The notes under the pieces: model-generated
The model's input: the letters and a program-made list of their open reading frames with translations, nothing else
What the model was told of the DNA's origin: nothing
The model's database searches: none
In this document: positions 52,101 to 58,498 of the stretch, piece by piece
How positions within the stretch are numbered: position 1 is the first letter of the stretch
Layout: each line of letters starts with the position of its first letter
NCBI GenBank assembly: GCA_964016885.1
Contig: OZ024755.1
Coordinates: 1,612,001-1,676,000 of the forward strand
Source: Eledone cirrhosa
Lineage: Eukaryota
Direction of reading: 5' to 3'
DNA: 64,000 nt
Translations under genes and position numbers: made by a program

Positions 52101-55100
52101 TTGAAGTTATTTTACAGATATATTTCTGTTTCATTTAACTGGCAATTATTACAATAAAAGCCTCTCTTTATATTGACATGACATAGATGTCTGTTTATCA
52201 ATATGTATCTCAAATAACCCCCTTGTTATATAGCATTGCTCTGTGTCTCAGGAATGTATTGTTTAAAGCATACAAAACGTCCATTCTGTGAAGTTTCATA
52301 TTTGTATCAATGGCTAAAGTAAAGCATAAAACAGTAGTTAATAGTTTCGGTGGTGGTAGTAGTGGCAATATTAGTAGTTGTAGTACTACTAGTAGTAGTA
52401 GAGATAAAAGGATATTCCATGTTACTAATACTCAAGTACTAATGTGATTGTCTGCATGAATAGTAATAAAATATTGATGGAAATAAATATAATTTGCTTA
52501 TTTACACCTTCCTGCCTTCTTTCTTTCCTTCCTTCCTTCCACATTAGTTAAGTACACCTTGAAAAACAGAAAATGTAATCAAGTGTATTTTAGAAGCTAG
52601 CTGTAGGAATCAGTAACTCCCAAACCATGTGTGTAGATATTATTACATCTTGCAGCTTTTTCATCAAAGTAGTTCTAAAAATACCATACCTGGATAACTG
52701 TTGCTATGACCAAGTTAACATGATGCTAGCAAACTTTATTACTTATGTGAGCTATTTCTCTGGCAGATAAACAAACTGAATAGCTAGATAAACAATTTTT
52801 ATTTTCCTCTTTCAAGAAATATTAATATTTTCATTAGAATTATATTTTATTTATGTATTTATTTTACAGTTAATGTAAAAATATTTTAAGTAAGGTAATA
52901 GATATTTAAAGGGACCATTATTCCATCCTTTCGGTGCCCAAAATGTACTGCTATGTACCACCCCTTCTTTTGTCTGCCAAAGATGTTCTGGTATGTCTTT
53001 TATCACCCTTTCCTTTCTCTACCAAAGATGTACTGGTGTGCTTTTGTTTAGTGTGTGAAGCTGTCCAGACAGAATAAAGAAAGCTAATTTTGATAAGAAT
53101 ATTTATTTTTAACAATTTTTTTCTTTCTTTTCTTCTTCTGAGACAGTAAAATCCCAAAAAGGGTATTGACACTCTAAGAATTAAGAACATTTTAAATGTT
53201 CAAGGAATAATCTAAATTGTAATTGTTGTTATATCTTTTAGACTTAGCTTGTCTTCAACAATTCTGTAAAATTAGTATTTATAACTTCCTTAATGTTTTA
53301 CTAAATTCAATTTTTGTTTATAGAAAACATTTTAATAAATAAAATAGCAAATGTTTTGAGATGTATAAATATAAGATATCATCACTTCGGTGTTTAATGA
53401 ATTCTATTAAAAATATTTGAGATGTATAAATTTATATATCACCACTTCAGTATTTAAAGAATAATATAAAAAATGCATTAATTTCTATGCCAATGAAATT
53501 TATTAGCAGCTTGCTGTAGTCATATTACTAGTCACACTAATTCAAGATGGATGTTTTAATGATTTATATAATAACTGACCTATTATAGTAATGTTGCTGA
53601 GTTAGCAACATGAGCACAAGTAGATAAAATAACCTTTTACCAATCCCTTCTATGTGACGTGTGCCACCCTCTTTCTTCCTTACAGCACTATTTAAGAGAC
53701 AAAGGGATCCAACATCTTCAGCTCTTTGATGTCATTGAAAAGATGCTTGAGTATGAACCTCATTGCAGGATCACTCTTGCTGAAACACTTGCTCACCCTT
53801 TCTTCAAACCTTTATTAAAAGAGCAACCACATCTAGAGCGCAAGCTATCCGTGCCGAACGAACCAAAGATGCTGGACCGCCGCAAAAGTTACCAGGGCAG
53901 TGAGTTATCATCTGAAAACCATGGTGACAAGTGTGACTGTGTGAAAACAAAGAGTGAGGGTCCAGGCAAATCTGATGTCAGCTACAGCTTCTTGCCAGGT
54001 GATCATCTCCAACATTAATTGTTGCATGGGACTTTAAACTTGAGCATGTTATCTTCCCATTTTCACCTTACCCACCACTTGTATTCACTTGACTTTCACT
54101 TTCACAGCTAATGACATCTGTCTCTACTTACTACTAGTATCATAAATTACCTCTACTAACAGTGAAAAAGAATATCTGTTGGAGTTGGTGGGCTGGGAGC
54201 TATAGATTGTCTTTTAAACTTGTGTTGCTACTACCTTGATTGTCTTTCTATTATTTCTGTAACAATTAAGATTTATTTTTATTTCTACTGTTGATACGAA
54301 AGCTTGCCTTAATGCGACAAATGCTTCACTAAGTAATTAGCCTTATTCAACACAGGAGACAGGTTAAATATTTGAACTCAGGACTGCAGACCCACAAAAT
54401 ATTGGAGGGGGACCGTCTTCCTGCCTCTTATGACAATGACTTGTATCATTTCATAGAGCCTATTTACAGCTCAGTGGACTGGGCTGAATTGATCAGAGTT
54501 AAGCATCATATACATAACACACAATTCACCAGTGACTGGATAACAACTGTTGAGAAATTGTCTGGGTTTTTGAAATGAAGAATTATATCCTGCTGTATTC
54601 TGGTTCTCTGCAGTCTGAATTCAAATTCAACCAAGGTCAACTTCACCTTTTATCACTTAAGAGGTCAATGAAGTATGACTGGGGTCGCTTCTTTTTCTTC
54701 TCTTTTCTCACCGGTAGGGCTCAGTCAGATTTCGATGCCCAGGACATGCCGTATGTCTCAATGGTGTCGCTATGGCTTCACCAGGAGTTGATGGCACAAG
54801 GCACAGCTTTAATGGTGGTGGGGGGTTGCAGATGTATTGTCTCTTCCCAGAAAATTGGATATCTTACATTTTGACAACCAAGTGGGCTAGGTGAATAAAG
54901 TTCCTTGCTTAGAACTTGGAAACAACCTGGACTTGAAATTATGAGTTGTGAGCTGGCAGTGCTATACTCACTCAATTTTTTCCTTTATCTTTTTCTCTAC
55001 AGAACTTGAGTAGAGTATGTATTTTTGGGAGAATTGAAGATACTACAATTCCCTCACAAATACATACACACATATGTATGTGTGTATGTGTGTATGTATG

Positions 55101-58498: not shown

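Follow-up and report, generated by a model that had tools for sequence, protein, structure and literature searches.

The window analysed here, 64 kb of Eledone cirrhosa DNA from contig OZ024755.1 with positions counted from its first letter, contains one gene for a kinase of the CLK/Doa (LAMMER) family, with all features described below on the + strand. Kinase exons between 36709 and 43852 are common to all forms of the protein and assemble into a single open frame that carries HTD, DFG, APE and an 11-residue LAMMER signature. Seven shared kinase-domain exons with AG/GT ends and one open frame (36709-36775, 40927-41043, 41522-41612, 41837-41912, 42480-42574, 42692-42821 and 43316-43398) match Octopus CLK2 models over 36709-43398, and the next exon, I (43773-43852), holds the 11-residue signature on helix aG. 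HTD stands in place of HRD in the assembled frame, with DFG and APE intact, and this substitution is a feature of CLK kinases (PMC2667211). The nearest named proteins were Octopus CLK2 models, at 88% over exon K1 (described below). A MAPK-like insert and helix aH after aG, together with the beta7/8 hairpin, were found by alignment to CLK2 and in a predicted model of protein P0001 from the relative O. vulgaris, whose J2 exon is the same as that of the window; the model places a helix at 308-316 and the hairpin strands at 185-200, and P0001 matches human CLK2 chain 5unp_A over residues 11-370 (E 5e-181). By every sequence feature tested, the window gene is a CLK.

Upstream of the kinase exons, alternative N-terminal exons match Octopus models at 2465-2506, 10058-10192, 17887-18135, 22752-22958, 23591-23806 and 34046-34178. 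The N-terminal variants include an RS/His-rich exon and a separate Thr/Asn-rich first exon, and a short N-terminal form has its ATG start just upstream of the first kinase exon. A tandem CAGCAG acceptor lies at 34077-34084, where Octopus models differ by one Gln (RQDHPEL versus RDHPEL). Among intronic features, an upstream intron contains a 200-N gap (39608-39807), the intron between K1 and K2 contains an exact 85-nt tandem duplication at 56040-56209 that may be an assembly artefact, and long inverted repeats at 49668-50003, 45297-45435 (arms of both at 93-97%) and 48277-50686 are probably small transposons. Very deep cover in all four public runs marks a high-copy repeat at 45207-45377.

Downstream of exon I, exon J1 (45774-45861, 88 nt, phase 2 to 0) encodes the MAPK-like insert and helix aH, and a second, arthropod/vertebrate-like copy, J2 (46870-46960, 91 nt, phase 2 to 0), follows with AG/GT ends. 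The two are 68% identical over 28 amino acids, and J2 is identical to a segment in Octopus models. Including both exons, or neither, shifts the frame and brings early stops, and the pair is likely mutually exclusive. The first-pass annotation of this DNA had not flagged J1/J2 as a second swap lying upstream of K1/K2. Models of both the J1 and the J2 type occur in the nemertean Lineus with one K type (three of four models, the fourth having an unrelated tail), suggesting that the J duplication preceded that of the K pair described next. Named arthropod proteins among 120 homologue hits have one J type (J2-type) and one K type.

The first-pass annotation centred on two duplicated exons, K1 and K2, each supplying kinase subdomain XI with a different tail, and much of that description holds. 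The copies share 62.5% identity over 32 residues (tblastn E 3e-10 within the window), and a profile built from 191 distinct CLK subdomain-XI segments matched the window twice, at K1 and K2 (62.9 and 58.9 bits), with no third copy in the window (next match -1.0); judged by sequence, the duplication is far beyond chance. K1 starts at 53686 after a pyrimidine tract and AG and reads for 110 codons to a TAA at 54016-54018, with a tail of 70 residues after HPFF that includes RKLS (53839-53850) and RRKS (53878-53889). In its main frame K2 (58325-58498) reads for 57 codons to a TAA at 58496-58498, encoding subdomain XI and an RSHSLSR end, and would be used when K1 is skipped. Both acceptors are phase 0 after either J1 (donor 45861) or J2 (donor 46960), and the subdomain XI Arg (R349 of P0001) does not vary among the 34 proteins aligned, all as previously described. 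Both copies are used, as Octopus models contain K1 forms and K2 forms and a J1>K1 joint occurs in one public run, and K1 is intact in relatives rather than damaged.

Over 58 amino acids, K2 and the O. vulgaris model P0011 share 84% identity. Ends of the RSH-L/I/V-SR type close 92 of the 120 homologue hits, so the RSHSLSR-type end, which had been called Doa-like, is the ancestral one and is lost with K1. A weak search for K2 among longer proteins gave six candidates, none of which was scored, and an exact look-up of the K1 read-through and K2 ORFs found no identical entry in the protein collection, a result that is uninformative.

Two further observations concern possible additional copies. A three-copy repeat of 40-45 nt at 52916-53045, 640-770 nt upstream of K1, has frames that read KM..Y and YHPFF (tblastn E 0.088), and its frameshift-tolerant score of 41 was matched by 0 of 116 random windows but was chosen post hoc; its DNA alignment is at background, and we did not accept it as a decayed third K copy. 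Contig protein P0218 carries J1 and then a third K-type segment, which stops immediately behind HPFF and is almost tailless; in the tree P0218 falls with K1. Its contig count and size (2, 2630 nt) are also those of P0025, and one transcript may chain the third copy, K1 and K2.

The 3' end of K1 is where our reading departs from the earlier one. Each exon had been assigned its own stop, and both TAA codons are indeed present, but that of K1 lies 18 nt past an overlooked GT donor at 53999. This putative 5' splice site (53996-54004, GT at 53999-54000) lacks the +5 G and has 6.5 of 9 matches to the U1 consensus, the top score within the K1 frame. Its use would make K1 a cassette of 313 nt (53686-53998, phase 0 to 1), with the acceptor seen in run X1 and the donor placed from the ends of homologues, and would carry the message into K2 in a frame that gives a junction codon, VHNGAEL and a stop; the stretch 53999-54018, leading to the TAA, would be read only if the donor is unused. 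The VHNGA peptide is absent from the window's K1 and present in K2's third frame (58327-58350, with TGA at 58348-58350), and is the likely end of K1-containing proteins.

Homologues point the same way. Every one of the 21 cephalopod-type K1 proteins ends in VHNGAxx, variously as VHNGAQQ, VHNGAQL or VHNGARL, and none of the 21 ends as the window's read-through does (DHLQH). Four of the 21 are contig ORFs; the others are isoform models from O. vulgaris, O. sinensis, O. bimaculoides and Argonauta hians and do not count as independent of one another. In three Octopus species, the shifted frame at the start of the species' own K2 can encode the final eight residues of the K1 form together with its stop, and random tail ends fitted K2's shifted frame in 0 of 5000 trials. 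Furthermore, the spliced reading outscored the read-through in alignments to all six homologues tested, by +30 to +37. From these relatives we infer a 53998>58325 joint in Eledone cirrhosa.

We therefore consider it probable that K1 is an include-or-skip exon joined to K2, which is then read in a shifted frame and otherwise serves as a shared 3'UTR. The 3'UTR is most likely shared because homologous K1 proteins run past the donor into K2's shifted frame. K2 would then be a dual-frame exon, the same bases being read in two frames; its sequence fits this strongly, over only eight codons of overlap. Strict mutual exclusion does not describe K1 and K2, both of which are likely present in the K1 message; criteria for mutually exclusive exons do allow joined reads where these shift the frame (10.1101/133215).

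Could the K1>K2 joint instead stem from faulty annotation or noisy splicing, with VHNGA matching by accident? Most of the named proteins are automatic gene models, as this explanation would have it, but the same ending occurs in short-contig ORFs, P0003 and P0024, and in one oyster contig ORF (P0192), and the chance fit was nil. In P0003 and P0024, which end in VHNGARL, exons I, J1 and K1 are already joined on contigs of 1523 and 2006 nt; these contigs therefore look like cDNA, and the VHNGA end is not only a gene-model product. We regard this explanation as extremely unlikely.

Alternatively, K1 and K2 may each serve as a last exon, with a stop and a 3'UTR of its own and the choice between them made by alternative polyadenylation, as the first-pass annotation proposed. 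C-terminal swaps of tandem exons are classically made in this way (PMC8373072), and the proposal would make sense of the in-frame TAA so soon after a weak donor, of an AATAAA at 54894-54899, between K1 and K2, that is a candidate minor intronic poly(A) site, of the end shared by Gigantopelta models and the genomic-contig ORF P0029, and of a scallop K1 that does not fit scallop K2. However, the read-through tail occurs in none of the cephalopod-type K1 proteins, and the conserved ending sits in K2's second frame. The AATAAA hexamers reported at 54894 and at 58821 are present, the latter (58821-58826) being the first after K2 and a candidate shared poly(A) signal, but both are at chance level: at the window's density of 1.22 per kb, the probability of meeting one or more is 0.66 over 876 nt and 0.33 over 323 nt, and neither is evidence of a poly(A) site. 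Relatives also indicate that the upstream copy does not stop unspliced at its own stop, as alternative polyadenylation would have it. What survives of the proposal is that helices and tail are swapped; a terminal K1 that has a stop, 3'UTR and poly(A) site to itself does not, given that 21 of 21 proteins end in the K2 frame. We consider alternative last exons improbable as the explanation of this locus. They may also exist as a lesser form alongside the spliced one, or predominate in gastropods and scallop.

Public sequence runs bear on the joints leading into K1. Four runs contain the region and none is on record as RNA; one of these, X1, was treated as RNA-like on its GT..AG joints alone. Read mapping covered 42300-47400, and contigs show presence only. 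The joints listed for X1 include 42574>42692, 43398>43773 and 43852>45774, the last of which connects exon I to J1; none of the joints listed leads into J2 or K2, which says nothing about the use of either exon. A 30-letter loose end at the J1 donor (45861) in this run equals window positions 53686-53715, the start of K1, and the J1>K1 joint thus exists as spliced sequence; the junction from 45861 to 53686 suggested in the first-pass annotation was in this way seen. Runs X2-X4 had no such splice joints on 42300-47400. X1 also contains an unspliced contig (45832-47400) running from J1 through J2 and beyond, while the upstream introns of X1 are spliced. It could represent DNA or intron retention, which is known for vertebrate Clk1/4.

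The only J-to-K joint among those listed for X1 is J1>K1, and K1 forms outnumber K2 forms 17 to 3 among the listed octopod kinase models. These observations would suit a gene in which K1 is the working exon and the frame-0 form of K2 is a rare leftover, kept mainly as 3'UTR. However, the model lists came from a K1 query and the X1 joints are only those listed, and the K2 of the window, like that of three Octopus species and of Magallana, Mizuhopecten and Potamilus, still has an open frame, the invariant Arg and RSHSLSR. We find such a demotion of K2 very unlikely. Among the 21 octopod proteins listed from the K1 query (15 of 29 members in the case of the larger cluster), the pairings were J2K1 in ten, J1K1 in seven, J1K2 in two and J2K2 in one, with one non-kinase protein; each of the 20 kinases has K1 or K2 in frame, never both. 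A Mya model, P0026, has K1 and K2 joined in frame, which may be a prediction error, and places K1 before K2, as in the window.

The cassette reading of K1 has consequences for the kinase domain. The segment after the LAMMER helix comprises the MAPK-like insert and helix aH, which buries the signature and covers SRPK1's docking groove (PMC2667211). By sequence, the J exon corresponds to this insert and helix, and the K exon to the next loop and the last helices. K1 aligns without gaps to human CLK2 through its last helix, and both forms should therefore be complete kinases. In the P0001 model (34 rows), the helices of the K1 core (329-341, 352-356 and 359-367) have pLDDT 84-95, while the tail (377-432), for which the alignment is shallow, falls below 50; the activation segment is poorly modelled. 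The K1 tail found no family in the ESM Atlas (best 0.84).

The tail motifs proposed earlier as potentially phosphoregulated fared differently from each other: the proteins of Octopus and Argonauta, and the cephalopod-type K1 proteins compared generally, retain RRKS, whereas RKLS is not kept in Octopus or Argonauta. CLK prefers Arg at -3 (PMC2667211), a preference that RRKS fits, and the K1 tail may have a role in docking, location or autophosphorylation.

K1-type exons extend well beyond cephalopods, to bivalves (Ostrea, Mizuhopecten, Mytilus, Pinctada, Tegillarca, Mactra and Mya) and gastropods (Gigantopelta, Plakobranchus, Pomacea and Littorina); beyond the core, their tails measure 62-842 residues. 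The K1 extension had been described as novel. This is true of the tail, which is cephalopod-specific (in a homology search, one of the 150 representatives listed aligned with it over its length), but the exon itself is mollusc-wide and so not novel to octopods. In a tree of 36 rows and 47 columns, 16 K1-type rows, labelled by a motif lying inside those columns, fall on one side of a branch with support of 95/85. K2 does not form one group in this tree (p-AU 0.18 for holding K2 together), nor is a duplication confined to cephalopods rejected (p-AU 0.089). The simplest reading of these sequences is a single K duplication before cephalopods, bivalves and gastropods parted. As single-copy controls we used 32 loci from a metagenome search, each with one K-type exon and no second copy, 16 of which also have one J1-type exon; none of the 32 is cephalopod-type.

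Use of K2's second frame appears to be less uniform than the duplication. Eight of 26 oyster K1 proteins end in SIT-stop, which fits the shifted frame of the Magallana K2 start HYIT (chance 40/5000), and the other 18 end in NR-stop, as read-through of an AG/GT donor would. The Mactra end GDI-stop fits a venerid K2 by three residues only and also fits 8 of 11 K2 starts (chance 152/5000); for both oyster and Mactra, the K1 and K2 compared come from different genera. When 26 K1 proteins were each compared with 11 K2 starts, four of the 26 fitted. The scallop K1 did not fit the shifted frame of scallop K2, and Mytilus, Pinctada, Tegillarca and nine gastropod-type ends fitted none of the 11 K2 starts, which were mostly from other species. 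Argonauta and three VHNGA-ending proteins showed no fit to the K2 of O. vulgaris, which is not their own. Gastropod-type ends look like K1's own stop. The splice joint is in phase 2 in bivalves versus phase 1 in cephalopods, and two-frame use may therefore have arisen twice.

If K1 is a cassette, its skipping would give the ancestral form, a kinase with the short RSHSLSR end. Its inclusion would add a tail of about 70 residues, predicted to be disordered and bearing the conserved RRKS, and remove the RSHSLSR end, with K2 contributing the junction codon and seven further codons and the remainder becoming 3'UTR. The long form would probably escape NMD, because its early stop would be in the last exon. 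With the MAPK-like insert and helix aH coming from either J1 or J2, the bottom of the C-lobe could be made in four versions. The purpose may be altered non-catalytic behaviour (substrate or partner docking, location, or autophosphorylation at RRKS) around the same active site. For control of the choice by RNA structure of the PGRP-LC type, in which competing pairings open the near acceptor and mask the near donor, six splice-site regions gave no fold below z -1.6 (z -1.57 to +1.02); a further 28 pairwise duplex tests, run against a weaker null (half the windows, 10 shuffles), carry no weight either way.

More speculatively, the gene may represent a two-by-two C-lobe switch in molluscs with overlooked long-tailed isoforms, in which the kinase controls its own switch; this is a possibility that we hold as rather doubtful. 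On such a scheme J1/J2 would swap the insert and the helix covering the docking groove, and K1 would swap the last helices, remove the old RSHSLSR end and add a disordered, lineage-specific tail of 60-840 residues, with the second frame of the old last exon making a new UTR unnecessary and sparing the message from decay. Cold-blooded animals could then adjust how strongly the kinase phosphorylates SR proteins according to tissue or temperature. The isoforms are already present in automatic annotations, several of them misnamed: P0031, P0039, P0078, P0028 and P0114, annotated as CDKL5-like, titin-like, Nek5-like or uncharacterised, are long-tailed mollusc CLK isoforms, and the annotation of such entries can be corrected.

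Internal, mutually exclusive duplicated exons are known in kinases, as in JNK exon 6a/6b and FYN. J1/J2 appears to be a typical example within a kinase domain, differing in the element exchanged (the CLK MAPK-like insert and aH) and in having a second swap directly downstream. In comparison with established CLK/LAMMER kinases such as human CLK2 and Drosophila Doa, the gene has the same insert (of the same 21-residue kind) and helix aH. Alternative N-termini are found here and in Doa, whose catalytic domain is common to all isoforms (PMC9653240), whereas here two C-lobe segments are each present in two copies. A single gene thus appears to vary the insert, the following helices and the tail by splicing, giving four versions of a catalytic domain that can be compared side by side. 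CLK is described as a master splicing kinase and temperature sensor, with one copy in molluscs and the MAPK-like insert among three divergence hotspots (PMC12795684); the passages of that study consulted make no mention of J or K exons. Under the terms searched, the portions of PMC9741552, PMC9013439 and 10.1101/133215 seen contained no CLK case, and neither the J nor the K exons of mollusc CLK were described in the literature searched, a scope that leaves out most subscription papers.

For the C-terminal swap, 77 human cases of tandem exon duplication substitution have been reported, PRKCB and GNAO1 among them (PMC8373072). In the part of that work seen, these likewise involve adjacent homologous exons that give a domain alternative versions of its C-terminal part and are old and conserved, and frameshifting skips are recognised as a source of distinct, non-homologous C-termini. 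The swaps there are ascribed to alternative poly(A), in contrast to the likely include-or-skip choice here, with both copies in one message and the second of them out of frame. Catalogues that assume poly(A) choice, or that exclude co-occurring copies, would miss swaps of this kind. In the literature seen, the nearest mechanism by analogy appears to be that of arthropod muscle myosin Mhc, in which a penultimate exon is included or skipped and changes the C-terminus, as K1 would (PMC2257972). According to the part of that source seen, the Mhc exon contributes 1-13 unconserved residues, is mostly untranslated and is not a duplicate. K1, unlike it, is a duplicate of the last exon, encodes helices that the kinase needs and probably takes its stop from the second frame of the last exon. 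The inclusion of a duplicate exon that demotes the original to an out-of-frame end and UTR would be a route to a C-terminal swap.
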